Below, piece after piece: positions 3 to 48,444 of a DNA stretch of 64,000 nucleotides. The DNA comes from Candidatus Hinthialibacteria bacterium OLB16 (lineage in GTDB: Bacteria; Hinthialibacterota; Hinthialibacteria; OLB16). The stretch covers positions 9,530 to 73,529 of the forward strand of contig LMZT01000038.1 in NCBI GenBank assembly GCA_001567115.1, in the 5' to 3' direction. The position numbers and the translations under genes were made by a program. The notes beneath the pieces were generated by a model, which was not told where the DNA came from, did not search any database, and saw only the letters and a list, made by a program, of their open reading frames with translations. The stretch's first letter is position 1, and every line of letters starts with the position of its first letter.

Positions 3-3000
3 AACTGTGATGTCAATGTGAACTCCAGGTGGTTGACCATCGAGAAAAACGCCACCTGCAATGTGCAGGGGAACCATATCACTGCTGACCGCCACCTGAA
101 GGTGGGTGGAACTTTGAATGCAGGCAATGTCCTCTTCGACTTCAATACCCGGAGCACCTGGTATGAGCCGGACCGGTTTAATGGAATCAATTGCCTTGAT
201 GGAAGCATATCCACATTGGATAACTGCACAATCAGAGGCCAGGAAACCCGGTCAACCGGAAATGACAACGACTGGTCGGCCCTGATTTATGCCGCTCCTG
301 ATGCCTCGATTGACCTGACTGCATGCTTCTTCGCGCCTCCGATGAATTCTGCCATGCCAACCCGGTTCGCGATCCGTTCGTGGAGCCAGAAAGCGTTGCG
401 GATTGCACGGTGCAGTTTTCATGAGCAGTACATGGCAGTGCGGCTGGATGCGCTTCCCTTACAGGGATATATCCATAACAGCAACATGGCCGGCAACTAC
501 TTTGCCGTCATGAATGTGATTCCCAGCATGTTCGATGCCCAGGGTAACTGGTGGGGGTCGCCGACCGGACCGGCGCATATACAAAATCCTGGCGGAGTAG
601 GTGATCCGGTTTCGGATAATGTCGATTATGGCCAGAGTTCCCTGGCTCCGAAAGGTTCACAGCTGACAGTCCTCAATCCAACCGGTGGCCAGGAGAGCAA
701 TACGCTGCTGGTTCAGGATCCGGTGCAGAAGGTCGAACTGTATGGTTTTCGAATCAACCCCGGACAGACAACAATCGCCTCGGCCGCTTTCCGTCTCTAC
801 AGCCTGTCGGGGCTGGAAGCCTCCCAGTTCACCAACTTCAAACTGGTTAAAGACGACAATGGAAATCAGACTGCAGGCCCTTTGGAAATAACCCAGGCAG
901 TTGATGCCTCACGTGTCGTCTCAGGCCAGAATGGGATCCATGTATTTTTCGACAGCCCCTTTACGACGCCTGCCGATGTGGCCAAAGGATGCATCCTGAT
1001 CTGTGATCTTGCCGGAGTGCAGGCGAATGATTCGTTGTCCGTCGACATGCCGGAGTACTTGATCGAATCAGCGCCGGGACAAACGATTGTCAGCCAGCTG
1101 GCAGAAACTCGGCACCGGGCAGGTCCTGCAATCTGGATAACCGATCCTGCCACCGGCCCGGTGCCTGATAACCTGACTGGAGCCATCCGCCAGAACAATG
1201 TGGTGCTGTATGCTTTCAATCTGGTGGGAACAACTCAGCAGACACGGGCGCTGAAATTCACCCTTTCGGAAGTCCGCAATCTTCCGCGTTCTGTTATTAC
1301 CTCCGCAGCCCTTTACCGGGATACAAATGCCGATAGGCAATATGATGCCGGTGATGAACGCATTGGTTCTCCCACAGAGATTGTCATCAACAGCGGCAGC
1401 GGACACATGGGATTTGCCGAAACTCTTTCCATGAATCAGGCATACCTGCTGGTTGCCAATTTCCGCGGCCTCAATGATGGAGCTGCTCTCACGGTTCAAC
1501 TCCTCCCCAATAATGTGTTCCTGACTGCTCCTGGAAATGTTCTGGGATATTGTTCCCCCGTTAACCACATGGCGGATCCGCCTTATATCATTGCCCAAAG
1601 TGACGCCTGGAATCCTCCGGCAAACTTTGGCGCCTCGACGAATCAGTCCAACTTCGTGCCTCTGGGCATCCGTATCGCTCCACTGGGGCGCACCATCAAC
1701 TCATTGAAAATCACCCTGGACAGTGTCGTCGGCATTTATCCAGGTGAGTTGAGCAACTGCCGCATGGTGTGGGATAAAAACAATAATGGGGTATTCGACA
1801 CCGGAGAGGAACTGGTTGGCGGTCCTGGAACTGTGCTGATCGATGGCAATGAGGGATCGATCCAGTTCAACACCCCATTTGTCGTCAGAGGGCGTTATCT
1901 GCTCATGGCGGATTTCATTACGCTCGTCAATGGGGATGAAATGACAGTCTCATTGAAGCCGGAAGATGTTTCTGTTCCGGAATCTATCCGTGTGACCGGA
2001 TCGGTCCAGCCGATCCGGTATGTTGTCCAGGCCGGCACTCCGGACAGCCGGTCGCCGAACATGAACTGGACTCTCACCTTCCGCAGCCCCGGAGGTGGAA
2101 CTGTCATTGGCCATTACAACAATGCCGGCAACAAGGTCATTCTGGGCTATGACACCGGGTCTGCCTGGATTTTTCAGGCCACTGCCAATGTTCCGGTCAT
2201 GATGTTCAAAGACCACTACGACAAGGTCGAATATGCAGGCTTTTCCAGTGACGATTCTTCGGCCATCACAGTTACCCGGGATGGTGCCGTTTATATCTGG
2301 GATCTCACCACAGGCGCGCAGCGCTCAGCCATGTTCAGCGATCTGCTTGTCTCTTATGCCGTTCCTTCCCCGGATTTATCAAAACTGATGGTGATTACCG
2401 AAGGGAAGGGCATCCTGCTGGATGTCGATAACCAGGAACGCCTGTGGGAATATGTTCCCGGGAATGCTTCGGTCAATGCGATTGCTTATTCTCCTGATGG
2501 AAGGTACATCCTGATTGGATCCAGCGACAAGCGCGCGTACCTCCTGGATGTGACAAATGGCGTGGAGGTCCGCCGATTTGTCGGCCATTCCCAGGCTGTT
2601 ACTGCTGTCGCCTTCACTGGCGATGGGACCAATCTCATGACCGGGAGCACCGATGCCACGGTGCAGCTCTGGAAAACCGATAATGGCAAACCGGTTGGAG
2701 GCCCGCCGCTTGCGACAATCTCTCTCCAGGGGCAGGAGTCACAAGGTGCGACAGTCTCCCCCAATGGGACACGTGTAGCCATGGTGACCGGGTATGGAGG
2801 CAATGCGCAACTGAGGATGTACAACGATCAGGGGCTGGAACTGTATGCCATTAACCTCACAAATGAATCTCATTCAAACTGGGGCGGCACATTGGAGAAT
2901 ATCACCTTCGACAAAGCCGGCGAACGTGTCATTGTCACTTCCCGCAACAGCGAGTGGGCGCGAAATGCCAGCTTCCGTGTCGAAAATGGCGGATACCTGC

Positions 3001-6000
3001 TCAGCTGGGGTCCTCAAGGGCGCTTTACACCCTGGCTGTCCACCAAACCGAAAATATCCCTGGATGGGGAAAGGATATTCGAAGCAACCGATTGGGGGAT
3101 AAATGTCCTCTTCCGAACCGCAGGAAAACCGATCTACCGCATTTCGGATTCACTGGGAGATAAAGGATACGATATCTCTGCCGATGGGTCTAAAGCGGTC
3201 TGGATGACTCCCCAGAACAGGCTCCGGGTCAGCAGCATCTCCGAAGGAGGATCGACCCTGATCCTCGATCGGGATGCCGGTTTCAACTACAACAGCCTGA
3301 CCATGTCCGATGCCGGTGAGAATGTCATTGCAGGGGACCGCATGTTCAGTGCCATCGGTGGCGGGCTTCTGGCCAACTATGCCGGCCCGGATCGTGAAGC
3401 TCAGAGCGCATTCAGCGCGGATGGAAGCCTGTGGGGATTCATTATTCCCCAGGATCATTCGATGGTCACCTGTCGCACAGGTGATCCGAACGCCGTCCTT
3501 TATAACCTCATGCTGACAGAGCCTTATACACCCTACAAGATGCTCTATCACCCCGACAACAATCGTGTCGGCTGTGTCGACTCGAACAATGGTGTTCAGT
3601 TTTATGACATGAGCACCGATTTGCCTGTCGGCCTTTACCGGTACCAGTACAATAGCGATGCCGCCATCTCCAGGGATGGAACCCTGCTGCTGATAGGCGG
3701 CCGCAATCAGGTCCGCATGTATGAAGTCCGGACAGGCCGAATTCTCCGCTATTTTTATCCTCAGCATTCGGGCCTGGCCGATGTCGATGTGCGGGGGGTG
3801 CAGTTTGCACGCAACGACACGATGATCATGATTGCCTGGAGCCCGAATTACATCGAACTCTACGAACGCAGCATGCCGGTGGGGATAGAAATCAATCCTG
3901 CCAACCGTGTTCTTTCAGCAGGTGACAGCCAGGCCTACCAGGTCTCTGTCATTTATGATGATGGAACTCGCGCGGACGTGACTCCATCGTCAAACAGTCA
4001 AGGTGATCTGGCAGGCCTTGTCTCAGACTCCGCTGGGAAGGCATCTGTCGATGGCAATGTTGTGACCCTTCTTCCGAATGCTTCAGGAGTTATCCGGATC
4101 CAGGCTCGTTTCCGGGATAGCGGCAGATCCTTTACCGCGGAGGCAGCCATCAATGTCGGCCAGACCAGCCTGGTCGGGCTGATCCCACATCCGGATTCAA
4201 TGAGCATGATACCAGGCGTATTCCGGGAAATCGGCTATACCGCACGGTATGCGGATGGTTACGAGGAGGATGTGACGGAAAATGTGGCGCTGACATCAAA
4301 TCGTCCGGATGATGTCGTCATCGCCGGCCAGAGTGTCAAAGTGAATCTGACCTCGATCCCAGGAAACATTGAGGTCACTGGCCATTATACCGATGCGCAT
4401 GGCCAGAGCGCATCAGCCAAAACAATCATCCAGGCTTATGGATTGCGCACACAGTGGGAACGTTACCGCATCACAGCCGGCGGTTATGGCCTTTCAGGGG
4501 CCTGGAGCCCAGACAAGAAAAAACTCGCCTGGGGATCGAGTTCAGGGGGTGTCGCTTTTTACAATACCGGCGTGACTCCCAGCCAGTATAAACTCGATCG
4601 TATTCTGATGGCGCATGAGGGGCAGGTGATCTTCGTCGACTACCTCTCCCCGACGACACTGGTCAGTGTCGGCCGCGAAGGAACCGTCAAGACATGGGAC
4701 ATGATAACCGGTTCGACTGTCCCTGTTTCGGTTTACTCGCATGACGCCCCTCTGCGTGTCGCTGCCAGAAGCGGCGGAAAACTGGCGCTCGGTGATGCTG
4801 TTGGAAAAGTGGCTGTCTTGAACCTGCCAACCTTCGACCTCGACTGGTCGAAGGCCTTCCATGAAGGGCCGGTCAAATCCATCGCCGTCGATAATGCCAT
4901 CGTCATATCCGGCGGCGAGGATTTCCGGATCAAGATCCTGCAGCGCAGCGATGGAACCTTGAATCGAAATCTGCTGACCCACACAGGAGCGATTGTCAGC
5001 GTTGGATTCATGGGAGCGAATGTCTTCTTTTCCCTGAGTGAAGATAAAACCATGACCCTCTGGCGGCGTTCTGACTACGAGGTGCTTCAAAGGTACGAAT
5101 ATCCTGTTGTCCCCACAGGTGCCGAGCTGATCAACAACGAACTGTATGTGGCAACGACGAATCCGAATGCCACATGGATTTATAACATGGATGGACTCCT
5201 GCTGCGCTGGCTGGAACACCCGCCTGCAGAGGGGGGCATCGTGAAGTACCTCATTGACCCGAGCGGAAAATTCGTACTGACTGGCCGTGCGACAATCCTT
5301 AAGGATGAAGTGAATTCCTTCGATGGATCAGTCATCAAAAAGCCAAGCCCCTTTGGATCGTTCCAGTTCTGGGAGGTGGGACGCGGTATCTTCCGCGGCT
5401 CACTGGCTCACAGCCATCCTCTTTCGGCAGCCTTCGCATCACCTGATAAGAAAACTCTCTTCACACAGGATCCCAAGCGGGTGATTCGGTGGAGCTATGG
5501 AGTGAAAGATGCCACTGCCGAATCAGTGAACCTGCTTGAGACCGGCTACTTCCTCGGACAATCCTTTGCCGGATTGGACTTTTCAGGCGATGCCCAGCTG
5601 CTGGCAACCCGGGTTGGTGTGTCGGTCTATCTGTTCGACACTTTCAATGCCCTCCTCTGGAAAACGCTGCATACCCCCGGCCCTGGCCCATTCGCGATAT
5701 CGCCAAACCGGCAATTCTTGGCCAGTGCGGATTGGAAGGTGCGGCTCTGGGATCTCAACAACCTCAGCCAGATCAATGAAGAGGCCCGATCGGTTGCCGC
5801 TGTTGATTTCCGCGGGAACACAAACTTCGTCGGTGCGGTTCAGGCCGATAATTTCATCGGTGTCTGGAACGCACAGGGGAAGCTCCGAATCGGGATGCAG
5901 ACCACTCATGGCCCAATCAAACTCTATGTCAACTCGACCGGAACACGCTGTGCTGCCATCACCCTGCATGTTGAATGCGGCGCTTTCGGGGATTGCGAAT

Positions 6001-6860
6001 ATTATTATTACCTCGAGATATTCGATATTTCCAACCTGGCAATCGAACCCCCACGAGTCGGCCCACCGGTCTTCCTCCTTCAGACCAAAACCGATCTGTT
6101 CGGAGGGGGCGAGGGTGAGGTCAACTCCAGTGTGGCTATTTCGGATGATGCGGGCCTTGCCCTGGTGGGTTCGGAAGGAGATCGCCCGGTCCGGCTGATC
6201 AGCACTGCTGATGGCTCTTCGATCCGTGAGTTTCATCCACCAAGCGGCTCAGGCACCGACAACATCGGTGCCGGCGCAGTGGCTTTTGCCGAACAGGATA
6301 AATCGGTTTTGATTGGCTGGCGGGAAGGATATGCCGAAATGCATCGGCGCCTTGCTCCGGTACGAATCGAAGTCCTTGTTTCTCGATTGGCGGGCGGCAA
6401 GTCAGTCGAAAAAGTCGTCATAAACAATGGGACCTTGTACGTCAAAACGGGTGAGGTCCTTGCCTCGGAAACTCTTGCACAGTACAAGAATGGTTCAGAG
6501 CTGAATGTCACTTCCATTACCTCCCTGCAATCAACGAATCCATCCGTCGCGCAGATTCAGGGCCGCAAGATTGCCATTCCAGCCAATGCTCCCCTGGGTG
6601 GGCAGGCGAATGTTTCTTTCAGCTACAATGACCTGGGGACTGTTCTCGAAACCACTGTCAAACTTGTTGTCGGCGAAAATCAGGTGTCCAGAGGTGATAC
6701 CAATGGCGACTTCACCCTGGACTACCTCGATCTCATTGAGTTCTCGCGCTGGTGGATGCAGAACGAGAACAAGTCCAATGCCGGCTGTGACAAAGTGGAT
6801 GACAGCAAGATAGACGCACGCGACCTTCATTACCTTATCAAGGCCTGGCTTGATAAGTGA
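3..6860 (+). CDS. Giant secreted/surface protein, probably 5'-partial: frame is open to the window edge and the track start at 18 is a GTG. N-terminal beta-helix-like region, multiple WD40 beta-propeller repeats, two or more Big_2 (bacterial Ig-like) domains, and a C-terminal dockerin-like Ca-binding module.
   Basis: 2280-aa ORF. WD40-like repeats (GHSQAVTAVAFTGDGTNLMTGSTDATVQLWK, HEGPVKSIAV...GGEDFRIKIL, HTGAIVSVGF...EDKTMTLWR). Big_2-like segments (NPANRVLSAGDSQAYQVSVIYDDGTRADVTP...). C-terminal GDTNGDFTLDYLDLIEF ... CDKVDDSKIDARDLHYLIKAW resembles a type-I dockerin duplicate. Confidence 0.6.
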   Translation, partial: NCDVNVNSRWLTIEKNATCNVQGNHITADRHLKVGGTLNAGNVLFDFNTRSTWYEPDRFNGINCLDGSISTLDNCTIRGQETRSTGNDNDWSALIYAAPDASIDLTACFFAPPMNSAMPTRFAIRSWSQKALRIARCSFHEQYMAVRLDALPLQGYIHNSNMAGNYFAVMNVIPSMFDAQGNWWGSPTGPAHIQNPGGVGDPVSDNVDYGQSSLAPKGSQLTVLNPTGGQESNTLLVQDPVQKVELYGFRINPGQTTIASAAFRLYSLSGLEASQFTNFKLVKDDNGNQTAGPLEITQAVDASRVVSGQNGIHVFFDSPFTTPADVAKGCILICDLAGVQANDSLSVDMPEYLIESAPGQTIVSQLAETRHRAGPAIWITDPATGPVPDNLTGAIRQNNVVLYAFNLVGTTQQTRALKFTLSEVRNLPRSVITSAALYRDTNADRQYDAGDERIGSPTEIVINSGSGHMGFAETLSMNQAYLLVANFRGLNDGAALTVQLLPNNVFLTAPGNVLGYCSPVNHMADPPYIIAQSDAWNPPANFGASTNQSNFVPLGIRIAPLGRTINSLKITLDSVVGIYPGELSNCRMVWDKNNNGVFDTGEELVGGPGTVLIDGNEGSIQFNTPFVVRGRYLLMADFITLVNGDEMTVSLKPEDVSVPESIRVTGSVQPIRYVVQAGTPDSRSPNMNWTLTFRSPGGGTVIGHYNNAGNKVILGYDTGSAWIFQATANVPVMMFKDHYDKVEYAGFSSDDSSAITVTRDGAVYIWDLTTGAQRSAMFSDLLVSYAVPSPDLSKLMVITEGKGILLDVDNQERLWEYVPGNASVNAIAYSPDGRYILIGSSDKRAYLLDVTNGVEVRRFVGHSQAVTAVAFTGDGTNLMTGSTDATVQLWKTDNGKPVGGPPLATISLQGQESQGATVSPNGTRVAMVTGYGGNAQLRMYNDQGLELYAINLTNESHSNWGGTLENITFDKAGERVIVTSRNSEWARNASFRVENGGYLLSWGPQGRFTPWLSTKPKISLDGERIFEATDWGINVLFRTAGKPIYRISDSLGDKGYDISADGSKAVWMTPQNRLRVSSISEGGSTLILDRDAGFNYNSLTMSDAGENVIAGDRMFSAIGGGLLANYAGPDREAQSAFSADGSLWGFIIPQDHSMVTCRTGDPNAVLYNLMLTEPYTPYKMLYHPDNNRVGCVDSNNGVQFYDMSTDLPVGLYRYQYNSDAAISRDGTLLLIGGRNQVRMYEVRTGRILRYFYPQHSGLADVDVRGVQFARNDTMIMIAWSPNYIELYERSMPVGIEINPANRVLSAGDSQAYQVSVIYDDGTRADVTPSSNSQGDLAGLVSDSAGKASVDGNVVTLLPNASGVIRIQARFRDSGRSFTAEAAINVGQTSLVGLIPHPDSMSMIPGVFREIGYTARYADGYEEDVTENVALTSNRPDDVVIAGQSVKVNLTSIPGNIEVTGHYTDAHGQSASAKTIIQAYGLRTQWERYRITAGGYGLSGAWSPDKKKLAWGSSSGGVAFYNTGVTPSQYKLDRILMAHEGQVIFVDYLSPTTLVSVGREGTVKTWDMITGSTVPVSVYSHDAPLRVAARSGGKLALGDAVGKVAVLNLPTFDLDWSKAFHEGPVKSIAVDNAIVISGGEDFRIKILQRSDGTLNRNLLTHTGAIVSVGFMGANVFFSLSEDKTMTLWRRSDYEVLQRYEYPVVPTGAELINNELYVATTNPNATWIYNMDGLLLRWLEHPPAEGGIVKYLIDPSGKFVLTGRATILKDEVNSFDGSVIKKPSPFGSFQFWEVGRGIFRGSLAHSHPLSAAFASPDKKTLFTQDPKRVIRWSYGVKDATAESVNLLETGYFLGQSFAGLDFSGDAQLLATRVGVSVYLFDTFNALLWKTLHTPGPGPFAISPNRQFLASADWKVRLWDLNNLSQINEEARSVAAVDFRGNTNFVGAVQADNFIGVWNAQGKLRIGMQTTHGPIKLYVNSTGTRCAAITLHVECGAFGDCEYYYYLEIFDISNLAIEPPRVGPPVFLLQTKTDLFGGGEGEVNSSVAISDDAGLALVGSEGDRPVRLISTADGSSIREFHPPSGSGTDNIGAGAVAFAEQDKSVLIGWREGYAEMHRRLAPVRIEVLVSRLAGGKSVEKVVINNGTLYVKTGEVLASETLAQYKNGSELNVTSITSLQSTNPSVAQIQGRKIAIPANAPLGGQANVSFSYNDLGTVLETTVKLVVGENQVSRGDTNGDFTLDYLDLIEFSRWWMQNENKSNAGCDKVDDSKIDARDLHYLIKAWLDK

Positions 6861-6977
6861 ACGTCTGAAAATTCCAGGGCATTGACTCGGGAAACCTCCC
6901 CCGGACAGGGAATGGGGGAGATTTTCTGGTGTCTCATCATTGACTTCTCTCATTTTCACCCGGAAAATCAGAAACGT

Positions 6978-7376
6978 ATGAAATACATCGCCTGCCTGGT
7001 GGCATTGTCGGTTATCAGCCTCTCCCTGCATGTCTCAGTGGATCATGCCCTGGTCGACTTCTGCCATTCCAGTTCGAGCCATAACCACGAGGAATCCTGC
7101 TGCAACCCTCTGCGGAGCCATGGCCTCTGCCACATGACTGCACATGCACATCCGCCTGGCGAGGATGCCCATCAGGGCCATTGCCATGTGGTCCATGGCT
7201 TCTGCCTGCGCGCTTCATCACAGAATCACCCTCTCTCCCTCAGCCTTGCCCATTCCGTACTGGTGGCACAAACCCTGGATCTCTGTGGCGGTCAGGGTTT
7301 TCTGTATGGAGATGTCCTGGTTTCTCCCTGTTTGAGAAAATACCGTTACCTCACTTACCAGACCCTTCTGATCTGA
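6978..7376 (+). CDS. Small secreted His/Cys-rich protein, putative periplasmic metal-binding protein (CzcI-like accessory or metallochaperone), just upstream of the RND efflux genes.
   Basis: Internal ATG gives MKYIACLVALSVISLSLH... (signal-peptide-like). It is followed by a dense His/Cys cluster (DFCHSSSSHNHEESCCNPLRSHGLCHMTAHAHPPGEDAHQGHCHVVHGFC). Same strand and directly 5' of the MFP/RND pair. Confidence 0.45.
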   Translation: MKYIACLVALSVISLSLHVSVDHALVDFCHSSSSHNHEESCCNPLRSHGLCHMTAHAHPPGEDAHQGHCHVVHGFCLRASSQNHPLSLSLAHSVLVAQTLDLCGGQGFLYGDVLVSPCLRKYRYLTYQTLLI

Positions 7377-7502
7377 ACCAGCCCGGTGTTCTCCTCTCCG
7401 CATCGCGGGGAAGCAACAGTCAATTCCATACAATCCAGTGATCCAACGGTGAATCAGCACCGGCTCACTTGATTTCACCCGGCAGCAGGCGGCCGCTCCA
7501 TT

Positions 7503-7517
7503 CAATGCGGTGCATTG
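7503..7517. promoter_or_regulatory. Perfect palindrome CAATGCggtGCATTG about 45 nt upstream of the efflux adaptor start; candidate operator for a metal-responsive regulator.
   Basis: Inverted repeat read directly in the intergenic region 7377-7560. Confidence 0.2.
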
Positions 7518-7560
7518 CTGCTGTCAGGTGGACCAACTCAAATGATTCAGGAAACAAAGG

Positions 7561-9366
7561 ATGACCACCAAATATTATCGGATTCATACTGAGGGATGGG
7601 CAGGCTCCATTTCCCGCCGCCGCTTTTTTCTGGCAGCCCTTTTTGAGGCGTTTCTCGCTCTTGCCGGGCCGCTGGGCGGATGGCTTGATTCACACTTTCT
7701 CTCATGGCAGTTCCCTGCTTCCAGCATTGAAGCGGTGTATGCGCATGAAGGCCATGATCACAGCCACGACGAAGACACCCATGCTCACGATGCAGATGCA
7801 GAGGCCGCGGAAGCCGGCCATGTCCATTCCCCTTCCGAAACTCAACAGCCGGGGACGGATGCTGCACACGACCATGACGTCCATTCCCACGATCACAGCC
7901 ATGCAGGTGAAGAAGCTCATGACCACGGCCATGAGAATGAGGCAGGTCATGACCATGACCATGACCATCCGCCCTCAGGTTCTAAGCCAGAAGAGCACGA
8001 CCATGATCATGAGGAGGGTGTTGTAGAAGTTCCGGCACATCTTGTGTCCGCCCTGGGGATTAAAACTGAATCCGTGCAGAAACAGGATCTCGTGCAGACC
8101 CTGGACCTCTATGGGTGGATTCGCCCCCGTCCGCAGGATCGGACTGACATCCATTCACCCCTGGAAGGGACAGTCGAGGCCATCCATGCCTGGCCGGGGG
8201 ACTTCGTCAAGAGTGGATCACCGGTCCTGGAGCTGAGCATTCCTGGCTGGTTCGACTGGCAGAAAGATGTGCTGCACCTCGCTCATACCCGGGAGCGTGT
8301 CACCGACCTGCGGGGTTATGGTGTCCGTGAAGGCCATGCGGAAATTGTTCAGCTGCTTGGAGAAATCCAGGTGGCCCATGCCGATTCACAGCGGCTTGAA
8401 AAGCAGCATGCATTGCTTTCAGAAGCTGGCTCGCAGGCAGTTTCCCGCAAGGAGCTTGAAACAAACCTGGGCAGCCTCAATCTCGCTCGCATCACCCTCC
8501 ATGCGAAAGAATCCCTGGCTCGCAGTTATGGCATTCCTGAGGCGGTTCTTGAATCCATCAAAGCGGGCGGCTCTATCGAGGATATTTCACCCGAAGTCAT
8601 CCCGCCGAAAACCAGGACTTCCATACGGGAGGCGGACTTCGACCTCGAGGAGGCTTTTCACTACTGCCGCCTGGCCGAAGCCAAGCTGCTTTCGGTCGGC
8701 TTCCCAACGGAAAAACTGGAACTTCTCAGGAAAGGCGATCTGAGAGGGATTGCACAGACACTGGTCGTCAGCAGCCCGGCCGATGGCCTGGTCTCCCGTT
8801 TGAATGTCACTGTCAAGATGGCGGTTTCTCCCGAAAAAGACCTGATCGAGATCATAGACTACCATACGGTCCTGATTGAAACTGAGGTTCCTGAGGTGGA
8901 TATCCAGCGTGTCCTGAATCGATATGGCGATCAGGTTGCAGTCCGGTTCCCCGGCCTTCCGGATGTTTCTTCCGAAGCTCGAGTGCTGTATTTCGATACC
9001 TCGGTTCATCCCGATATCCGCAAAGCGCATCTGGTGCTGGAGCTCGACAACCTCCCCGGCCTGCTGTTGCGCGACCAGATGGCTGCCAGTGTGGGGGTGC
9101 CTTTGGCTGTGCGTGAGAATGCCTTGAGTGTTCCACGAAAAAGCATTCTGACCGATGGATTCGAGAAAATCGTCTTTGTCGAAGAACAACCTCGCCATTT
9201 CCATCGCACTCCCATCACGACCGGAATTGAAAACCTGGACCGGATTGAAGTTCTTTCCGGCCTCAAGGCAGGCAGCCGTGTGGTCACAGATGGGGCCAGA
9301 GTCCTTTTCCTTGATTTGAAAGCACCCAAGGGGATGGGTGACCCCCATGCCGGGCACAGCCATTAA
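7561..9366 (+). CDS. RND efflux periplasmic adaptor (membrane fusion protein, HlyD family), CzcB/CusB-like. It has a Tat-type signal and a ~100-aa His/Asp/Glu-rich metal-binding low-complexity region.
   Basis: N-terminus SRRRFFLAAL (twin-arginine motif). HDHSHDEDTHAHD...HDHDVHSHDHSHAGEEAHDHGHENEAGHDHDHDH tract. MFP-like core (LYGWIRPRPQDRTDIHSPLEGTVEAIHAWPGDFVKSGSPVLEL). C-terminal GDPHAGHSH. Immediately precedes the RND pump. Confidence 0.8.
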   Translation: MTTKYYRIHTEGWAGSISRRRFFLAALFEAFLALAGPLGGWLDSHFLSWQFPASSIEAVYAHEGHDHSHDEDTHAHDADAEAAEAGHVHSPSETQQPGTDAAHDHDVHSHDHSHAGEEAHDHGHENEAGHDHDHDHPPSGSKPEEHDHDHEEGVVEVPAHLVSALGIKTESVQKQDLVQTLDLYGWIRPRPQDRTDIHSPLEGTVEAIHAWPGDFVKSGSPVLELSIPGWFDWQKDVLHLAHTRERVTDLRGYGVREGHAEIVQLLGEIQVAHADSQRLEKQHALLSEAGSQAVSRKELETNLGSLNLARITLHAKESLARSYGIPEAVLESIKAGGSIEDISPEVIPPKTRTSIREADFDLEEAFHYCRLAEAKLLSVGFPTEKLELLRKGDLRGIAQTLVVSSPADGLVSRLNVTVKMAVSPEKDLIEIIDYHTVLIETEVPEVDIQRVLNRYGDQVAVRFPGLPDVSSEARVLYFDTSVHPDIRKAHLVLELDNLPGLLLRDQMAASVGVPLAVRENALSVPRKSILTDGFEKIVFVEEQPRHFHRTPITTGIENLDRIEVLSGLKAGSRVVTDGARVLFLDLKAPKGMGDPHAGHSH

Positions 9367-9378
9367 GGAGCGAATGCA

Positions 9379-12300
9379 ATGTTAAAAAACTGGTCGCAGC
9401 CGCTCTGAATTTTCGCATCTATTTGATTATCGGGGCTTTGATCCTCTCTGGGTATGGCCTCATTACCGCCCACAAACTGCCGATCGATGTCTTCCCTGAT
9501 ATGAACCGCCCCAATGTCACGATCCTCTCCGAGGTCCATGGTTATGCCCCCGAGGAAATCGAAAAGCTGGTGACCTTTCACATCGAATCCGCCATGAATG
9601 GCGCTCCTGGGGTTGTCCGGGTCCGCTCGATTTCATCGGTGGGGCTGTCCATGGTGATGGTTGAATTTGATTGGGGGCTGGATGTTTACAAGTGCCGCCA
9701 GATTGTTCAGGAGAGGCTTCAGATGGCCCAGGAAAAACTTCCTGAAGGCATCACGCCCACCCTGGCTCCGGCTTCCTCTGTTACCGGTGAGATCATTCGC
9801 ATCGCATTAACCTCGGATGGAAAAGTCACTCCGGTCGAACTCCGATCCTTTGCGGATTGGGAGATTCGCCCCAGATTGCTGACTGTCCAGGGGGTTGCGC
9901 AGGTCTTCACCATCGGTGGCGAGGCGCGTGAATACCAGATCCTTGTCGATTCAGCCGCCATGGCCAGGTATTCCGTGTCGATCAATGACCTCGAAGAAAC
10001 CCTCCGTGGAGCCACTTTGAACACTCCCGGCGGATTCATCTTCCGTGAGGGAACCGAATTGCTCATCCGCAACATCGGGCGTCCGGAGCAGATTGCAGAA
10101 ATCAAAGACCTGGTCATCAAGACCGGGGGGCATGGTTCTGTGCGCCTGAATGACATTGCCGATATTGTGGAAGGGAAAAAGATCCCGCGTGGGACTGCCG
10201 GGCTGAACGAGCAGGATGCGGTCATTATCAACGTCCTCAAACAACCCGAGGCCAACACCCTGGTTTTGACTCAAAAACTCGATGAGGAAATTCAGGCGAT
10301 CAAAAAGTCTCTCCCCAAAGGCATGACACTGAATGACCAGGTGTATCGCCAGGCGCGTTTCATCGAGGTGGCTGTCCATAATGTGATTGAAGCGGTCCGG
10401 GATGGATCGATCCTCGTGATCATTATCATTCTGGTCTTCCTGATGAACCTGCGGATGTCATTCATCATTCTGACTTCGATCCCGCTTTCCGTGATCAGCA
10501 CCCTGATTGTCTTCAGCTGGTTCGGATTGAGTGTGAATACCATGACGCTGGGGGGGATTGCTGTTGCGGTCGGCGAGCTGGTGGACAGCGCGATTGTCGG
10601 CGCCGAGAACATCTATCGCCGGCTGAGGGAGAATTCCAGCAGGCCGCCGGAGGAACAGAAACCCCTCTTCAATCTGCTGTCGGATGCGACTGCGGAGGTC
10701 TTCGGCGGCATTGTGCTGGGGACCCTGATCGCCCTGCTGGTGGTTTTTCCTTTGTTTGCGCTGCCAGGCATTGTCGGAAAGATTTTCAGCCCGATCGGGA
10801 TTGCCTATCTGGTTTCCAATTTTACCTCGATGCTTGTTTCCATCACCGTCACTCCGGTTTTGTGCTCCTATTTTCTCAAAGGCCGCCTGCCGGAGTATGG
10901 CCGGGATGGCTTTGTGGTTCGCGGACTGAAGCGCATGATTGAGCCGGTGGTGCTCAGTTCGGTCCGCTTTCCTCTGGTTGTTCTCCTTGTGGGTGGATTG
11001 CTGGCCGGCTGGGCGCTCTGGAAAGCGACACGTGTGGGACTGGATCTTCTGCCTGAATTCAATGAGGGTTCGGTTTTTGTGATCGTGATGTCCCCGCCGG
11101 GAACCGACCTGGCCACCTCTTCACGGCTTGCCAAGGCAACTGCAGTCGCCATGCAGTCGGTTCCGGAAATTGCCGCCAGCGTAACTGGCCATCGATCCGG
11201 GAGGTCTGAAGGGGATGAGCATGCCCATGCGATCAGCCAGTCGGATGTCGAAGCCGAGATCGTCACCCCCGAAGGGAAGAAACCCAGGACACTGGATGAA
11301 ATACAGGATGATGTCCGAGCTGCGATCGGCCGAGTCCCCGGGGCGATTACCGAACTCTCTCAGCCGATCTCCCACCTGATCAGCCACCTGATCGGTGGAG
11401 CGAGATCCGAAGTCATCGTCAAAATCTATGGGCCTGACCTCGATGTTCTGCAGGAGATCGGAAACAGGTTTCATGAAACCATCCGGACTGTGCCCGGAGT
11501 CGTCGATGACTATGTCGAGCAGCAGATGCTTATTCCACAAATCCGGATTGTTCCGAATGACCTCGAACTGTCGAGGTATGGCCTCCACAAAGGGGATGTT
11601 CTCAAAGCCTTGGAAATCGCCCTTCAAGGTGAAGTGCTCTCCCAGGTTCAATCCGGGGAAAGGTATTTCGACCTGACTCTCAGAGGCGGCGACTCGCTGC
11701 GGGAGACGGAGGAAAGCATCAGCAATTACCTTCTCACCACCCCCTCGGGTTCGCAGATTCCACTCAAAGCGGTTGCGGATATTGTCGAGGATGTCGGCCC
11801 GAATGTGATCAACCATGAAAATGCACGGCGCAGGCTGTATGTTCTCTGTAATGTCTCTGGAAGGGATCTCGGCAGCACGGTCGAGGAGATCACCTCGAAG
11901 CTCAGCCAGGAAGAACTCCCCGAAGGGTACAGCTGGGTGATGGGTGGGCAGTATGAACAGCTTCTTGAATCCGGCAGGGTGATGACCCTCCTGTTCCTGA
12001 TCACACTGCTGCTCATGTTCGCTGTTCTGGCGGCAGAGTTCCGCTCGATGCCCCTGGCGGTGATCATCATGCTCAACATCCCTCAGGCGGTGATCGGTGC
12101 GGTCATTGCATTGATAGTGACCGGCACCAGCCTGAATATGGGGGCTGTGGTTGGATTTGTGGCCTTATCCGGGATCGCCGCGCGAAATGGGATCCTCCTG
12201 ATTTCCCACTGGGTCACACTGATCGGTGAAGAAGGCCATCCTTTCAGCGCGGAGACGCTCCTTCTGGGTTGCAAGGAAAGATTGACACCTGTTTTGATGA

Positions 12301-12503
12301 CCGCCCTCACGACCACTCTGGGATTGATTCCGCTTGTTCTCGCCAAAGGACAGACTGGAAAAGAGATCCTGTATCCGGTGGCAGTTGTAATTTTTGGCGG
12401 ACTGATATCATCCACCCTGCTCGATTTTACAGTCACTCCGGCAGCCGCCAGGCTGTATGGGCGCAAAGGTATTTTGCGCCTGGCAGGCAAAGAAGAAGCC
12501 TGA
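9379..12503 (+). CDS. Heavy-metal efflux RND transporter (HME-RND, CzcA/CusA family). The annotated start is disturbed by an apparent 1-nt indel in an A6 run at 9384-9389; the ORF track starts at TTG 9423.
   Basis: 1026-aa ORF with CzcA/CusA-type sequence throughout (LPIDVFPDMNRPNVTILSEVHGYAPEEIEKLVTFHIESAMNGAPGVVRVRS...). ATG at 9379 gives MLKN then a stop. Reading A7 instead of A6 gives MLKKLVAAALNFRIYLIIGALIL, in frame with the rest. Confidence 0.85.
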
Positions 12504-12625: not shown

Positions 12626-14260
12626 TCAACGGGGCGGCTGCAGATATTCCTTCAGCAGGTGCTGAACAAGGGGAGCGGCCTGCTGGAGCCAGGCCGGCCA
12701 CTGCTCAATGCCGCTCTGTTTCCAGATGGTTCGCGCCAGCGCCAGCGATTCATGGTAATCCCCGAGTTCTTCCAGATCATACAGGTTGACCAGTGTCGCC
12801 ATGGCGCGCGCCAGTTCCAGAAGTGGCACAGTAGGGGAACTCTCCTCGATTTCAGCCACCGCCTGATCCAGGCGGTCGCGCTTTTCCTCGGAATCGATGA
12901 TGTCATGGCAGTGCAATCGATGTGGGGTTTCCGGCTGTTTCTCTGGGAAGTCCCAGCCGGCCATTTCCTCCATCAAAGAGCGAATCGCACCGGCACCCAG
13001 CTCGAACTGCGCCTCCAGCAGCGCACAACACCTCTTCCAGGAGGCTTCGATTGACCCTTCCCAGAGCATGTAGCCAACAGTCGCTGGCGCAAACCCGAAC
13101 CTTTCCAGGTGCGATTGCGCAGGGACACAGCACAGGGATGCAGCGATCCCGTTATAGCCCGCTTCGATCGCATGTGAAATCCGCCGGCACTGGTTGAGGC
13201 ACAGCAGAGGATCGAGCACCCCGGCCATCTGCGAATCCCAGCCCGAATTGAGAAACAGCAGTGATTGGCCCCGAAGCGGGGGCGGCAAAGGCCGGTCGAT
13301 TTCCGAATGGAGCGGAAGCGAATCATCGACCGCTGAAAATAAAACCCGTGGGCAATGTCCAGCGGAGATGGGAACCCCCAGGCGGGTTTCGAGGGTGATG
13401 CTGGTGTCCTGAAGGAGGATTTTTTCGAGGAAACCGGCAAGAACTTTTTCCCCGGGTCCTGCCGGCCAGACAGAAAACCGGACATTGGGGTTGCCAATGT
13501 CGCGCCACACCTGAAGCAGGGCCTCCTGCAGCTTGCGGATCTGAACCGGCGAAAATGAGGTCCAGTCCTCATTGGGTGGCTGCCCGAGCACCTCCTGCAG
13601 CCAGGGGAGGCAATATCCACCGACAATCAGATCGATATCGAGATCGGCCACCAAGGCCAGGCTCTCATCCGGGAACTGGCCTTCCGGATCTGCAAACCGG
13701 GAGGGGTTGCTCGGAAAAAGTGTGTTGTAACGATGATGCGCGAGCCAGCGGATCATCTCCGGAGTGATCTCCACCTGCTCGCAATAAAAAGCGCGAAGTT
13801 GAATTGCGGGGGTGTGCACGAAGCTCCCCACTGGAAAAGTCCAGGAAGTTGCGGCCGGTTCCAGGGTCATCTGTGGAGTTGGCCAGCTCCATCCCATCTG
13901 TTCCATCAGGTTCCAGACTGCATAAAACAGGCCTCGGCGTGTGCCGCTCTGAAGGCCGATCCCATTCAGGGCAGTAGCCTGAACGAACTCATCCCCTTCG
14001 AGTTTCTTGCCGGCGGATAGGGCCTCCTGGCCTGTGGATGTGGCCTGCAGATGGATCTCAAAAGGGCCGAGATCCGGATCGATTCGGACTTCTGAGCCGA
14101 TTCCGACGGATTGGAGACTGGCTCTCAATTCTCCGGCTGGGGACCCCGCGGAGACATGGGAGCGCTCAGAGACTGTGATGAGGAGAGTGTCACCCCTGCC
14201 AAAAACCAATTCCAGCATAGGCCCATTGTAGGAAACCGCGCTTTTTCTGTCGACTGTCAC
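12626..14260 (-). CDS. Hypothetical protein; family not recognised (possibly a glycoside-hydrolase-like TIM-barrel protein).
   Basis: 544-aa ORF with coding-like composition. No motif I can assign with confidence. Confidence 0.4.
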   Translation of the reverse strand: MTVDRKSAVSYNGPMLELVFGRGDTLLITVSERSHVSAGSPAGELRASLQSVGIGSEVRIDPDLGPFEIHLQATSTGQEALSAGKKLEGDEFVQATALNGIGLQSGTRRGLFYAVWNLMEQMGWSWPTPQMTLEPAATSWTFPVGSFVHTPAIQLRAFYCEQVEITPEMIRWLAHHRYNTLFPSNPSRFADPEGQFPDESLALVADLDIDLIVGGYCLPWLQEVLGQPPNEDWTSFSPVQIRKLQEALLQVWRDIGNPNVRFSVWPAGPGEKVLAGFLEKILLQDTSITLETRLGVPISAGHCPRVLFSAVDDSLPLHSEIDRPLPPPLRGQSLLFLNSGWDSQMAGVLDPLLCLNQCRRISHAIEAGYNGIAASLCCVPAQSHLERFGFAPATVGYMLWEGSIEASWKRCCALLEAQFELGAGAIRSLMEEMAGWDFPEKQPETPHRLHCHDIIDSEEKRDRLDQAVAEIEESSPTVPLLELARAMATLVNLYDLEELGDYHESLALARTIWKQSGIEQWPAWLQQAAPLVQHLLKEYLQPPR

Positions 14261-31840: not shown

Positions 31841-32959
31841 ATGAAAATCACAGGTGTTCATCTCATCCCACTGGTTTACCCGACCCGGGGTCGGTTCAAA
31901 TTTTTTGAAAGCCCCACCGGGAGAACCGGGCGTGCTGCTGTTCTGGTCAAGGTTGCCACGGATGAGGGTCTGGCTGGATGGGGGCAGAGTGTTCCAGTCC
32001 CGCGCTGGAGCTCGGAGACCCTGGAAAGTGCGCTCACCACACTGGAGCGTTACCTCGCCCCTCTCCTGACCGGACAGGATCCCCGCGATATCGAGGCGAT
32101 CCACCACCTGATGAACCGTGAGATTGCTGGCTCTTTTTCCGCCGGTGCTCCTATTACCAAGGCCGGCATCGATCTGGCTCTGCATGATCTGTGGGGGAAG
32201 GCAGAGGGTAGAAACATTCGCGACTGCTGGGGCAGAAAAGGAAAACAAAGCCTCACTGTAAGCTGGACCCTGAATCCCGCATCGCTCGAGGATGTGGAGG
32301 GTATGATTGAGGAAGGGCTTTCGAAAGGTTACCGCCACTTCAATGTGAAAGTGGCTCCGGATCTCAAATTCGACCTGGAATTATGCCGGATCGTTAAAAA
32401 GCGGGTCCCGGATGGCTTTTTATGGTGTGATGCCAATGGGGGGTATGACCTCCCGACCGCGCTGGAGGCGGCTCCATCCCTGGCCGATCTGGGAGTGCCG
32501 GTCCTCGAACAGCCATTGCCAGCCCACCGCCTCAGCGGATACCGCGAGTTATGCCGGCAGGGGGCTTTGCCAATCCTGATGGATGAAGGAGTCGTTTCTC
32601 CGGAGGATCTGCTCGAATTCATCCGGCTTGGCTGTTGCAATGGAGTGGCGATGAAACCGGCCAGGTGCGGGGGGCTTCTTTCAGCACGCCGGCAGGTGGA
32701 AATCCTGCTCAATGAGGGCCTGTTGTTCCTGGGGTCTGGGCTGACCGATCCGGATATCTCTCTGGCAGCGGCCCTCAACCTCTATGCCGCTTATGATCTT
32801 GCATATCCAGCGGCTTTAAATGGCCCGCAGTTCCTCGATGGCAGCCTGCTCAAAAATCCATTCTTGCCCGGGGGGGAGATCCAGGTTCCCCAGGGGCCTG
32901 GGCTTGGGATCGAGGTGGATGAAACAAGGATCGAAGGCCTGCGCGTCAATCTCTTTTAA
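31841..32959 (+). CDS. Enolase-superfamily enzyme, mandelate racemase / muconate lactonizing enzyme (MR/MLE) family.
   Basis: Capping domain (AAVLVKVATDEGLAGWG) and barrel metal ligands (HFNVKVAP...WCDANGGY...LEQPL...MDEG) typical of MR/MLE. Confidence 0.8.
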   Translation: MKITGVHLIPLVYPTRGRFKFFESPTGRTGRAAVLVKVATDEGLAGWGQSVPVPRWSSETLESALTTLERYLAPLLTGQDPRDIEAIHHLMNREIAGSFSAGAPITKAGIDLALHDLWGKAEGRNIRDCWGRKGKQSLTVSWTLNPASLEDVEGMIEEGLSKGYRHFNVKVAPDLKFDLELCRIVKKRVPDGFLWCDANGGYDLPTALEAAPSLADLGVPVLEQPLPAHRLSGYRELCRQGALPILMDEGVVSPEDLLEFIRLGCCNGVAMKPARCGGLLSARRQVEILLNEGLLFLGSGLTDPDISLAAALNLYAAYDLAYPAALNGPQFLDGSLLKNPFLPGGEIQVPQGPGLGIEVDETRIEGLRVNLF

Positions 32960-34209
32960 CCTGCCGAGACACTGCCCCTCGGCTTGAAAATGCGCTTGGT
33001 TTTGTCGTACGCCAGCTGCGCTCCAAGGTGCTGGGATTCGGATGCCAGTGTGGCAACCACCGATTGGGCATACCCGGCTTCGATGGGGGCATTGGTGGCC
33101 GCACGGTTGCGCATGCAGTCGAGGAAGTTTCCCATGTGATTGTCGGATGGCATGTCCTTGATCGGAATGGCTTCGGCCAGTTTGTCTTTCCCGCCTCCAT
33201 CCGGAACCGCTTTCCAGCTGGCGGTGTCAAAGGATCCTTTTGATCCATAGACTATGACCTCGGGGGTGGGGCGCATATTGCCCAGCCGGTTGGAGTACCG
33301 CAGCAAAAACCCTTTTGGAAATTCATACAGGCATTCGATCGTGTCGCAGTGCTCGCGCCCATCCTTCCAAATGTAAATTCCGCCCAGAGCGGTTCCATAG
33401 AGCGGATATGGATCATTCATGAACCAGAGCGCAATATCCATCACATGGCTGCCCAGAAGCCCGGGAAGCCCGCAGGTGTAGTCCCGGAAGAGGTGCCAGC
33501 AACGGTACCTGCGTGGATCGAAAGGCCGATTCGATTGCCCCATCAGATACTGCTCCCAATCGACATCCTCCTGGCGGACATCTGAAAAATCACGCGCCCA
33601 GCGGGGATTGGCATCATGCCAGGCGGTATCGATTTCGGTGATCGTTCCCAGGATTCCGGATTGAATCAGGTCTGCTCCAGCCTTGAATTGCCCTTCGCTG
33701 CGCCGTTGAGTCCCGATCTGCACCACAATGTTGTTATCCTTGACTGTGTCATAAGCCAGCACTGCTTCCTCGAGTGTTCTCGACATCGGCTTTTCACAGT
33801 AGGCGTCTTTTTTGGCCTGGGCCGCAGCGGTCAGTATCGGACAATGGGCATGGTCGGGTGTCGCGATGATCACGCCATCGACATCCGGCCTTGCCAGCAG
33901 CTCCCCATATTTTGAGGTGCTGAATGGAGCCTTCCCGGTCTTTTCCCGTATCCGGGCGGCTGCCTTCTCGAGGTTTGGGCGCCAGACATCACAGACAGCG
34001 GTAATTTCTACCGAGTGGGAATCCGCCAGCTTCTCGATTTCTTCGATATGGTAGGTGCCGCGCCCTCCACACCCGATGATCCCCAGCCGGATCCGCTCGT
34101 TGGCTCCATTGGCGCGAGTCTGCGAAAGCGCCCATCCAGCGAGAGCCGCTCCCGCTGTGCTGGTGAGAAATCCACGGCGTGTTGTCGTTTCACCATTTCC
34201 CTGTGGCAT
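32956..34209 (-). CDS. Tat-exported Gfo/Idh/MocA family oxidoreductase (periplasmic glucose-fructose-oxidoreductase-like).
   Basis: Twin-arginine signal TTRRGFLTSTAGAALAGWALS. Rossmann motif IRLGIIGCGGRG, then EKP motif (AYCEKPMS). Start set at the second ATG, preceded by AAGGGAGGA. The stop codon overlaps the convergent MR/MLE stop by 4 nt. Confidence 0.8.
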   Translation of the reverse strand: MPQGNGETTTRRGFLTSTAGAALAGWALSQTRANGANERIRLGIIGCGGRGTYHIEEIEKLADSHSVEITAVCDVWRPNLEKAAARIREKTGKAPFSTSKYGELLARPDVDGVIIATPDHAHCPILTAAAQAKKDAYCEKPMSRTLEEAVLAYDTVKDNNIVVQIGTQRRSEGQFKAGADLIQSGILGTITEIDTAWHDANPRWARDFSDVRQEDVDWEQYLMGQSNRPFDPRRYRCWHLFRDYTCGLPGLLGSHVMDIALWFMNDPYPLYGTALGGIYIWKDGREHCDTIECLYEFPKGFLLRYSNRLGNMRPTPEVIVYGSKGSFDTASWKAVPDGGGKDKLAEAIPIKDMPSDNHMGNFLDCMRNRAATNAPIEAGYAQSVVATLASESQHLGAQLAYDKTKRIFKPRGSVSAG

Positions 34210-34248
34210 GAGCCTGTCCTCCCTTTTCATGAGATCCCTTTCGGTTGG

Positions 34249-40042: not shown

Positions 40043-40158
40043 CTTTCCGCTCCCTCCCCGCGTCATCCCCGTTGTGACGAGCGCTCCTTGACTGAATATA
40101 GGCGGGCTTCGGCGTTTGATTTCATGAGCACACGATTTCATTCAAGTGTTACAGACTT

Positions 40159-48250: not shown

Positions 48251-48444
48251 TGAACAAGATGAAGACTCAACGGAGCGCAGCGAAGCGGTTTTCGCTGACA
48301 AAGAAGGGTAAGATCAAACGATCCAAGGCCTATCACAGCCACCTTCTGACTTCGAAAAACACCAAACGGAAACGCGGCCTGCGCAAGGCTACGTATATCT
48401 CCCCTTCGGATGAGGGGCGGGTCCGCCGCATGTTGGGATTGTAA
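48250..48444 (+). CDS. rpmI: 50S ribosomal protein L35.
   Basis: MNKMKTQRSAAKRFSLTKKGKIKRSKAYHSHLLTSKNTKRKRGLRKATYISPSDEGRVRRMLGL. Own RBS AAGGAG 7 nt upstream of the ATG. Confidence 0.8.
   Translation: MNKMKTQRSAAKRFSLTKKGKIKRSKAYHSHLLTSKNTKRKRGLRKATYISPSDEGRVRRMLGL

Follow-up and report, generated by a model that had tools for sequence, protein, structure and literature searches.

A probable RND operon for heavy-metal efflux in Candidatus Hinthialibacteria bacterium OLB16, headed by the gene of a rare His/Cys-rich small protein

Among described efflux systems of the resistance-nodulation-cell division (RND) superfamily, those closest to the locus reported here are CzcICBA of Cupriavidus metallidurans (pMOL30; Zn/Co/Cd), CusCFBA of Escherichia coli (Cu(I)/Ag(I)) and ZneCAB of C. 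metallidurans. The locus consists of three genes, for a small His/Cys-rich protein, a periplasmic adaptor and an RND inner-membrane pump, and lies in a 64,000-nucleotide (nt) stretch of Candidatus Hinthialibacteria bacterium OLB16, a member of the OP3-related phylum Hinthialibacterota (GenBank assembly GCA_001567115.1, contig LMZT01000038.1, positions 9,530 to 73,529 of the forward strand; this whole stretch is hereafter called the window). CzcI is encoded ahead of czcCBA and is described as a periplasmic quencher of the CzcCBA pump (PMC10127602). It is also counted among the CutF-like proteins, the genes of which are mostly found ahead of OEP genes of RND systems (PMC9973294; 10.1101/2025.02.05.636593). 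The DUF2946 proteins CruR and CutF are upstream open reading frames (ORFs) that sense copper as nascent chains, through a Cys motif and a C-terminal proline arrest element. CruR has a conserved spacing from CxxC to RAPP, with 45 intervening residues, and is followed by an intergenic region of 162 nt (PMC9426467). Concerning the adaptors of heavy-metal efflux (HME) systems, extra metal-binding N- and C-terminal parts are described, as is anchoring by a transmembrane (TM) helix or a lipid (PMC4446572).

The three ORFs were found on the forward strand at 6978-7376 (132 amino acids, aa), 7561-9366 (601 aa) and 9423-12503 (1026 aa as read), as an earlier note made from this DNA alone had placed them. 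Taken as a whole, the locus is probably best explained as a chromosomal heavy-metal RND operon of Hinthialibacteria, descended from an ancestor with the order small gene, outer-membrane factor (OMF), optional YHS-domain gene, adaptor and pump, with an anchored adaptor, an OMF encoded elsewhere, a CzcI/CutF-like small protein and a one-nucleotide error at the pump start. In the proposed mechanism, the N-terminal helix of the adaptor would anchor it in the inner membrane, the adaptor's His tracts would gather a metal of the divalent borderline class (Zn, Ni, Co or Cu(II)) from the periplasm, and the metal would be handed to a His/Glu/Asp site of the pump and expelled via an OMF whose gene lies in another part of the genome. 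As an exported or nascent metal sensor, the small protein would tune the expression or activity of the pump, and this proposed sensing role would also explain why no classical regulator is encoded nearby. The locus was correctly delimited at the outset and is mainly an ordinary heavy-metal efflux operon; its novelty is modest, and lies in a rare CutF/CzcI-like leader family with a fixed internal ruler and in a His-lined pump clade. If the inferences hold, the CutF/CruR metal-sensing leader mechanism would be extended to a new sequence family and to Hinthialibacteria and Omnitrophica, and an HME-RND clade would be defined that has periplasmic His and carboxylate residues where CusA has methionines. 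Both extensions would aid the annotation of metal resistance in wastewater and environmental metagenome-assembled genomes (MAGs).

The pump (9390..12503, + strand; 1041 aa once its start is restored, as described below) was assigned from Pfam ACR_tran, TIGR00914 and a site-by-site alignment. It matched ACR_tran with 797 bits, covering profile positions 13-1015 of 1021 and hence the full-length 12-TM (transmembrane) architecture, and scored 704.4 bits on the CusA/CzcA model TIGR00914, a borderline pass of the 701.45-bit cutoff; the same model gave 730.7 bits for the ortholog at locus L007, 1668 bits for CusA and 1882 bits for CzcA. Multidrug (HAE) models reached at most 495 bits against cutoffs of 940-1250. 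When solved structures were ranked, by score alone, CusA came first (453 bits) and ZneA second (414 bits), and multidrug pumps reached at most 266 bits. The assignment to a heavy-metal-type RND module, proposed earlier from the sequence, was therefore upheld by the TIGR00914 cutoff and by the rank of CusA and ZneA far above the multidrug pumps, and the clustering with HAE1 pumps that had been named as its refutation was seen neither in the model scores nor in the ranking. The pump clade was tight, its members sharing 70-76% identity with one another and only 29-33% with either reference; the window pump is 29% identical to CusA and 33% to CzcA.

Individual sites were compared in an alignment of the window pump, four orthologs and the references CusA of E. 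coli and CzcA of pMOL30. The fourth TM segment (TM4) of the window pump reads GELVDSAIVGAEN and follows the CusA pattern AxGxxVDxAIVxxEN, its Asp and Glu (CusA D405 and E412) being retained as D403 and E410 throughout the clade. The motif DFGxxxDGAxxxVEN, which reportedly goes back to Nies 2003 as the TM4 motif of CzcA-type (HME1/2) pumps and which was checked here against the CzcA sequence, is absent: the window pump has AVGELVDSAIVGAEN where CzcA has LDFGIIIDGAVVIVEN. The hallmarks of CusA are missing as well, with the Met triad M573/M623/M672 replaced by I/Q/H and the Met pairs of the TM region lost (M403, M410, M486, M501 and M1009 correspond to L, G, N, C and L). At the positions of CusA M623 and M672, the clade instead possesses the conserved periplasmic motifs SEGDEHAHA and PIxHLISHLIGG.

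These alignments show a full-length, proton-antiport-type RND protein of the CusA/CzcA superfamily, belonging to a divergent HME-RND clade, with a periplasmic cleft that appears to be lined by clade-specific His and carboxylate residues. Such a site is more in keeping with a divalent borderline metal than with Cu(I)/Ag(I), and a carboxylate/His-type periplasmic site in place of Met, with the same suggestion of a divalent metal, is a likeness to ZneCAB. The label "CzcA-like, of Zn/Co/Cd/Ni type" given by the earlier note is nevertheless too specific, as TM4 follows the CusA pattern and the Met triad of CusA is lacking too. The neighbouring genes in relatives, which encode a P-type ATPase or a cation diffusion facilitator (CDF) transporter and in some cases a YHS-domain protein, do not settle the question of the metal.

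The adaptor (7561..9366, + strand; 601 aa; membrane fusion or periplasmic adaptor protein) was assigned from Pfam HlyD_D23 (8.7e-24), from TIGR01730 (96.7 bits against a cutoff of 94.9), from its AlphaFold2 model and from Foldseek. Its scores on the models of specific metal adaptors were far below their cutoffs, at 76.2 against 319.3 bits for the CzcB/NccB model TIGR00999 and 53.1 against 390 bits for the CusB model NF007303. In the AlphaFold2 model, the core (residues 150-590) was predicted with a predicted local distance difference test score (pLDDT) of 80-95 and comprised four domains, including a helical domain with a 61-residue helix; a helix was predicted at residues 17-33, and confidence was low at 35-150 and 591-601. 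Foldseek matched the model to TMexC, ZneB, CusB, AcrA, MexA and MacA with E-values from 1e-21 to 1e-17, so that the fold resembles both CusB and ZneB, the latter being the second-best match. The adaptor is thus of the canonical four-domain type, and its predicted helical domain for OMF docking is long.

At its N-terminus, the adaptor possesses a long n-region, the segment S18-RRRFFL-24 (nt 7612-7632) and a helix of hydrophobic character (F22-L42). Farther on, at about residues 61-153 (nt 7741-8019), lies a disordered tract of ~90 aa rich in His, Asp and Glu; residues 61-165 contain 25 His, and H, D and E together make up 51% of them. The protein ends in PHAGHSH (nt 9343-9363). The HD/HE-rich tract and the C-terminal HAGHSH, both extensions of metal-binding type, were thus present as first noted, and only their description as unusual failed, since such extensions are common in metal adaptors (PMC4446572) and in the orthologs. 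HDHDH-type N-terminal tracts were found in most of the retrieved metal adaptors (from a word-based search, which favours such sequences), His-rich adaptor extensions are shared with CzcICBA, and all ortholog adaptors end in (P)HAGH[SA]H or DHGHSH. The L007 ortholog follows the same plan throughout: its anchor is succeeded by ~110 aa of His tract, and PHAGHSH stands behind the core. Among the close strain variants (the window, L011, L001 and L012), the His tract differed by a two-residue HD deletion in L011 and by several substitutions, and residue 29, within the hydrophobic helix, was E29 in the window and V29 in the other three. The adaptor at locus L002 carries an additional Ig-like N-terminal domain.

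The organization of the operon was compared among relatives with enough flanking DNA. In all seven distant relatives (L002, L003, L004, L006, L007, L010 and L013, with L002 an Omnitrophica MAG and L010 a MAG labelled Gammaproteobacteria), the order was small gene, OEP-family OMF gene, an optional YHS-domain gene, adaptor gene and RND pump gene, with 158-184 nt between the small gene and the OMF gene and pumps of 1061-1062 aa. The small His/Cys protein, OMF, adaptor and pump genes of the relatives are thus in the czcI-czcC-czcB-czcA order of pMOL30. In one branch of the family, genes encoding YHS-domain proteins of 226-232 aa lie between the OMF and adaptor genes, at L003 (3472-4152), L004 (4954-5634), L006 (9916-10605) and L010 (9921-10619); each product is anchored at its N-terminus, has His-rich termini and contains two Cys-rich zinc-ribbon modules of YHS/TRASH-like type. 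Neither L007 nor the window has a YHS gene; both possess the long adaptor His tract instead.

The OMF gene was missing only from the window and from the 97-99% identical loci L001, L011 and L012, where the spacer of 184 nt stands in its place (7377..7560, + strand, between the small gene and the adaptor gene). Neither a Pfam search of the large ORFs nor tblastn with the five cognate OMFs as queries revealed an OMF in the 64-kb window, and tblastn detected no remnant of an OMF or YHS gene, whether in the spacer or in the rest of the window, the best matches being low-complexity ones within the His tract. Compared with the described systems, the window lacks czcC, czcD and czcRS of the Czc system and CusF and CusRS of the Cus system, and differs from ZneCAB in lacking an OMF and in possessing another accessory gene. 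The earlier note had seen here a compact module with no OMF; as the OMF gene is present in seven relatives, its absence is a lineage-specific loss from a canonical operon. The pump presumably uses an OMF encoded elsewhere in the genome.

The small gene (6978..7376, + strand) encodes a putatively exported His/Cys protein of 132 aa. Its N-terminus forms a hydrophobic signal or anchor, its motifs read H18-V-x-V-D-H-A-L-V-x-F-C29-H30 and D63-x-H-x-G-H-C69-H-x-x-H73, and its last residues are TLLI. Residues 18-77 contain 13 His and 6 Cys (15 and 9 in the whole protein), which corrects a first count of about 14 His and 8 Cys in 60 residues. The protein matched nothing in Pfam, NCBIfam or the PDB, and its AlphaFold2 model, built on a shallow alignment of 8 sequences, had a pLDDT of 44.9, with only the N-terminal helix moderately confident. 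The NCBI annotation starts the gene 66 nt farther upstream (154 aa), a start unsupported by the family alignment.

A word-indexed search of 5.8 billion proteins returned the small protein itself only, recorded as a hypothetical protein of Candidatus Hinthialibacteria bacterium OLB16, while a full HMMER scan of 1.84 billion representatives retrieved five true relatives and a profile search four more; loci were found once in 185,579 species genomes and three times in a metagenome scan. The family is real, conserved and very rare (~10 clusters), and the lack of conservation that had been named as grounds for discarding the ORF was not observed. Invariant positions in the alignment were H18, V21, H23, L25, C29, H30, H58, D63, H65, G67, H68, C69, H70, H73 and L130, which fall into the family motifs HVxVDHALVxYCH and DxHxGHCHxxH and the terminal S-L-[LQ]-[IL] (SLLI). 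From GHCH to the C-terminus the length was 62-65 aa in 10/10 members, in a segment with a poorly conserved sequence. In 7/10 members, the Cys of GHCH was separated by 47-50 residues from the first Pro of a PP doublet, and PP stood at -15 or -16 from the end in 7/10 members; the window copy keeps just one Pro, at C69+48 (SPCLRK).

CutF-like proteins have been delimited as those with fewer than 150 aa, an N-terminal signal, PP in the last 15 residues and a same-strand gene within 1 kb (PMC9973294). The window protein has fewer than 150 aa, a hydrophobic N-terminus and a same-strand downstream gene less than 1 kb away, and only one Pro. Like the DUF2946 upstream ORFs (CutF, CruR and CopL), the family members are shorter than 150 aa, start with a signal-like segment and carry metal motifs of Cys and His. 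The last Cys lies 47-50 residues from the Pro (48 in the window copy), compared with 48 in CruR; the small gene is always first in the metal operon and mostly ahead of an OEP gene, as described for CutF/CruR (PMC9973294); and the intergenic region is long, at 158-184 nt compared with 162 nt for CruR (PMC9426467). The differences are also clear. The family has C-H and H-C-H motifs in place of CxxC/CxxxC, carries ~14 extra residues after the prolines, ending in the conserved SLLI, and occurs in Hinthialibacteria/Omnitrophica-type MAGs plus one with the label Gammaproteobacteria, in contrast to the mainly proteobacterial DUF2946. With CzcI, the family shares a layout of signal, Y-C-x-H, His-rich linker and D-x-x-C-G-x-C-H.

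Because of the fixed ruler, the CruR-like distance to the Pro, the first position in the operon, the length of the spacer and the fact that no fold is predicted, the small protein can be inferred to act as a regulatory leader or sensor of the CzcI or CutF/CruR class rather than as a chaperone. A bolder proposal, to be taken as tentative, is that the family represents an unrecognised, deeply divergent CutF/CruR (DUF2946) branch outside the usual Proteobacteria, in which co-translational sensing by H-x-G-H-C-H, a ruler of 47-50 residues to a proline and a tail of ~15 residues ending in SLLI would set the expression of an HME-RND pump and replace a classical regulator; the window adaptor may in addition have switched to twin-arginine translocation (Tat).

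Several observations weigh against the overall interpretation given above. The PP doublet is missing from the window copy of the small protein, and the gathering score of DUF2946 (PF11162) was not reached by any of the proteins, the window copy giving no match and two relatives giving E-values of 0.37 and 2; CzcI itself, at E 0.026, is also under the gathering score. An hhalign comparison of the small-protein family with pMOL30 CzcI was not significant (probability 0.6%, E 0.1), the only segment aligned being DxHxGHCH with DTDCGVCH of CzcI. After the small ORF, no rut-like region with C in excess of G was found, the C/G ratio of 1.1-2.1 being the same as in random windows, and no hairpin sequestering the Shine-Dalgarno site stood out in the window or was common to the spacers of relatives. 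No OMF partner was seen within the 64-kb window. Lastly, the exact RRxFL core motif of the adaptor allows Tat export, which we consider doubtful, and the gene coordinates of a contig from SRR29904083 imply that the frameshift at the pump start could be real; both points are taken up below.

The twin-arginine signal attributed to the adaptor by the earlier note is present as a motif, S18-R-R-R-F-F-L24 matching RRxFL exactly, within the Tat core consensus (S/T)-R-R-x-F-L-K, after an n-region of 18 residues. On this basis the adaptor could be a genuine Tat substrate, perhaps since its His tract folds or binds metal in the cytoplasm. The motif was found only in the lineage of the window, where it is identical in the four strain variants, and CutF-like genes do occur upstream of Tat substrates (PMC9973294). 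At least one more Tat-type signal is encoded in the organism, on a GFO/IDH/MocA oxidoreductase (32956-34230, - strand) with a textbook TRRGFLT (TTTRRGFLTSTAGAALAGWALS), which suggests that a Tat pathway operates there. The Tat profile models PF10518 (TAT_signal) and TIGR01409, however, gave no match to the adaptor even at E<=10, a weak negative given the short models and the HMMER filters. The hydrophobic (h-)region had a Kyte-Doolittle mean of 1.7-2.3, in line with the 2.0-2.4 of the orthologs' anchors without RR and well above the 1.16 of the other Tat-like signal in the window, and neither the weakly hydrophobic h-region nor the conservation of RR in orthologs that marks Tat signals was found.

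Among the 46 retrieved homologs, no other case of a Tat-type RR signal (RRx and two hydrophobic residues, then an h-region) was detected, neither in the orthologs nor in the 45 others. The closest ortholog (P0003) has a lipoprotein signal with the lipobox LIAAGC and an n-region, KRRAAL, that is the only other match to the RR pattern, and the anchors of the adaptors of L003, L004, L006 and L007 are of the ordinary kind, with ARKGRFLL in one of them. TM or lipid anchors are established for adaptors (PMC4446572), no literature was found on Tat-dependent adaptors, and the passenger is largely extended and has no cofactor. The N-terminal helix is thus most likely a signal anchor of the Sec/SRP (general secretion/signal recognition particle) type, whose positive-inside flank would happen to read RRxFL; the motif stands, and Tat export is unlikely.

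With a CzcI/CutF-like leader or sensor preferred for the small protein, the alternative of a periplasmic metallochaperone, functionally analogous to CusF, which would feed the adaptor or pump and have no regulatory part, appears improbable. The dense conserved His/Cys motifs behind a signal-like segment would suit such a chaperone, and in all relatives the gene shares an operon with that of the pump. The structure prediction gives no globular fold, though, and the C-terminal half, poorly conserved in sequence, fixed in length and constant in (P)P and SLLI, has a pattern typical of an arrest or leader peptide and not of a binding domain. The gene is always the first and is followed by the structured spacer of 158-184 nt, and CusF belongs to another fold and family without any match. 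Both a metallochaperone and a CzcI-like accessory protein had been proposed from the sequence; the position of the gene agrees with CzcI, and the chaperone is the less likely of the two.

The start of the pump gene bears on a further alternative. As read, the pump ORF opens only at TTG 9423, which has no Shine-Dalgarno site, while ATG 9379, 13 nt past the adaptor stop, is preceded by a perfect Shine-Dalgarno sequence AAGGAG (9365-9370); the start region thus spans 9365..9408 (+ strand). In the window, the frame of ATG 9379 ends after 9 codons at TGA 9406-9408, because the A-run at 9384-9389 is A6 where relatives have A7, namely L001 (97% identical) and L011 and L012 (99% identical). With A7, ATG 9379 reads MLKKLVAAALNF (MLKKLVAAALNFRIY) straight into the 1041-aa pump, and the more distant orthologous pumps all begin MLK[HNK]LV.

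Other genes of the window break at homopolymers as well. The class II B12-dependent ribonucleotide reductase gene nrdJ (37341-40141, - strand) is split into two overlapping frames at an A5 run (39022-39026; ..GEDRFQPK|..) and is mended by one extra A, so that this break is probably a sequencing error. Fumarase C (- strand; ORFs 42535-43305 and 41886-42971) is split at or beside an A6 run at ~42790-42795 (..GSLEKK|ARQFKRIVKSGRTHLQ..). The genes infC (IF3) and rpmI (L35) are fused into one ORF of 271 aa (47629-48444, + strand) with a C6 run at 48230, where C5 would let infC end at a TAA overlapping the ATG of rpmI. Since these three loci also break at homopolymers and three relatives carry A7, the A6 run at the pump start is most likely a homopolymer error of sequencing or assembly and not biology. 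The assembly has gene-breaking homopolymer indels, and apparent frameshifts in it should not be taken as biology.

If the A6 run were real, the operon could be decaying in this lineage, with the pump (frameshifted at codon 4) and the adaptor (a 61-nt duplication or insertion in L012) becoming pseudogenes after the loss of the OMF gene. The contig from SRR29904083 encodes an identical adaptor, and its pump was called 57 nt past the adaptor stop, which implies A6 there also; the L012 adaptor is truncated at residue 216; and the ratio of nonsynonymous to synonymous polymorphism (pN/pS) of the adaptor is 0.47. Against this, the pN/pS of the pump is 0.16 (compared with L001), adaptor and pump are intact and full-length in L011 and, where sequenced, in L001 (in which the contig ends 696 aa into the pump ORF), and the A6 break has its like in nrdJ, fumC and infC/rpmI. 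The L012 lesion (8196-8284), in which a 28-nt direct repeat (gtcgaggccatccatgcctggccggggg) flanks 33 unrelated nt, resembles an assembly artefact, and may be either that or a real disruption. Decay is accordingly unlikely, and an intact pump is normal for this lineage, whichever cause A6 has.

The A6 allele also creates a heptamer A_AAA_AAC (9384-9390) in the zero frame of the 9-codon ORF, where a -1 slip would give MLKNLVAAAL..., similar to the MLKNLV start of the L007 ortholog. A programmed -1 frameshift was rejected as the principal explanation, as any loss of one nucleotide from A7 yields this heptamer and other homopolymer breaks are present; the heptamer is probably coincidental.

The weakest alternative, a two-component system of adaptor and pump that moves metal only from the cytoplasm or inner membrane to the periplasm, would fit the lack of an OMF gene in the window and is very unlikely, because the adaptor core aligns nearly gaplessly over its whole length with OMF-linked orthologs (50% and 40% identity) and so keeps the full helical OMF-docking domain, and because OMFs are often encoded elsewhere and shared by pumps, czcBA without czcC still giving zinc resistance (PMC10127602).

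Within the spacer, the palindrome CAATGCggtGCATTG was confirmed exactly at 7503-7517, separated by 43 nt from the ATG of the adaptor; its sequence is as previously reported and its significance is not, as it is at chance level. The window contains 22 perfect inverted repeats of the form 6+3+6 and 246 with spacers of 0-8 nt. As CAATGCggtGCATTG occurs only once in the window, no regulon can be inferred from it. The spacer also contains an imperfect GC-rich hairpin at ~7474-7531, which encloses the palindrome, and an AGGA Shine-Dalgarno site at 7549-7552. On folding of the spacer RNA, the palindrome formed no hairpin of its own and no favoured one, and the z-scores of -1.9 and -1.65 were not significant. 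A role as operator was rejected on the basis of the 22 equivalent repeats, the lack of an own hairpin and the insignificant z-scores.

L001 is identical over the aligned 7330-7600 save one mismatch in the small ORF, and L011 and L012 are collinear across the spacer at ~99% overall identity, the spacer not being separately aligned. As these three loci are 97-99% identical to the window, they are uninformative on the conservation of the spacer and palindrome. Beyond the group of L003, L004 and L006, the spacers of different loci could not be aligned; all were predicted to fold slightly more stably than shuffled sequences, with z-scores from -1.9 to -3.5. Rfam returned nothing relevant on the leaders at E<=5, neither a riboswitch nor a known RNA. 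A scan for promoters and terminators yielded no convincing terminator, and a weak sigma-70-like pair TTGACT-17-GAAAAT at 6940-6968. As this -35/-10 pair ends 9 nt before the ATG of the small ORF, its mRNA could be leaderless, as reported for czcI2 of C. metallidurans (PMC10127602).

Within 5 kb of the operon, the genes encode a 2280-aa WD40 protein, a 544-aa ORF, a GFO/IDH/MocA oxidoreductase and a GH95 enzyme. The family assignments of these neighbours by Pfam gave no OMF and no regulator, which bears out the absence of both within 5 kb as first described. Among the other large ORFs of the window, Pfam identified no metal regulator, the sole regulator being of GntR/LacI type and 12 kb away. 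The 2280-aa protein (18-6860, + strand), with multiple WD40 beta-propellers, lies directly upstream of the operon, an order kept in L011 and L012. The 544-aa ORF (12626-14260, - strand) is convergent with the pump gene and had no match in Pfam or NCBIfam. Towards the other end of the window, a 1249-aa protein with bacterial Ig-like domains (54703-58452, + strand) has an out-of-frame overlap of 331 nt with a very long ORF (58119-64000, + strand) that continues past the window end, and the two may be one giant adhesin-like gene split by a further frameshift.

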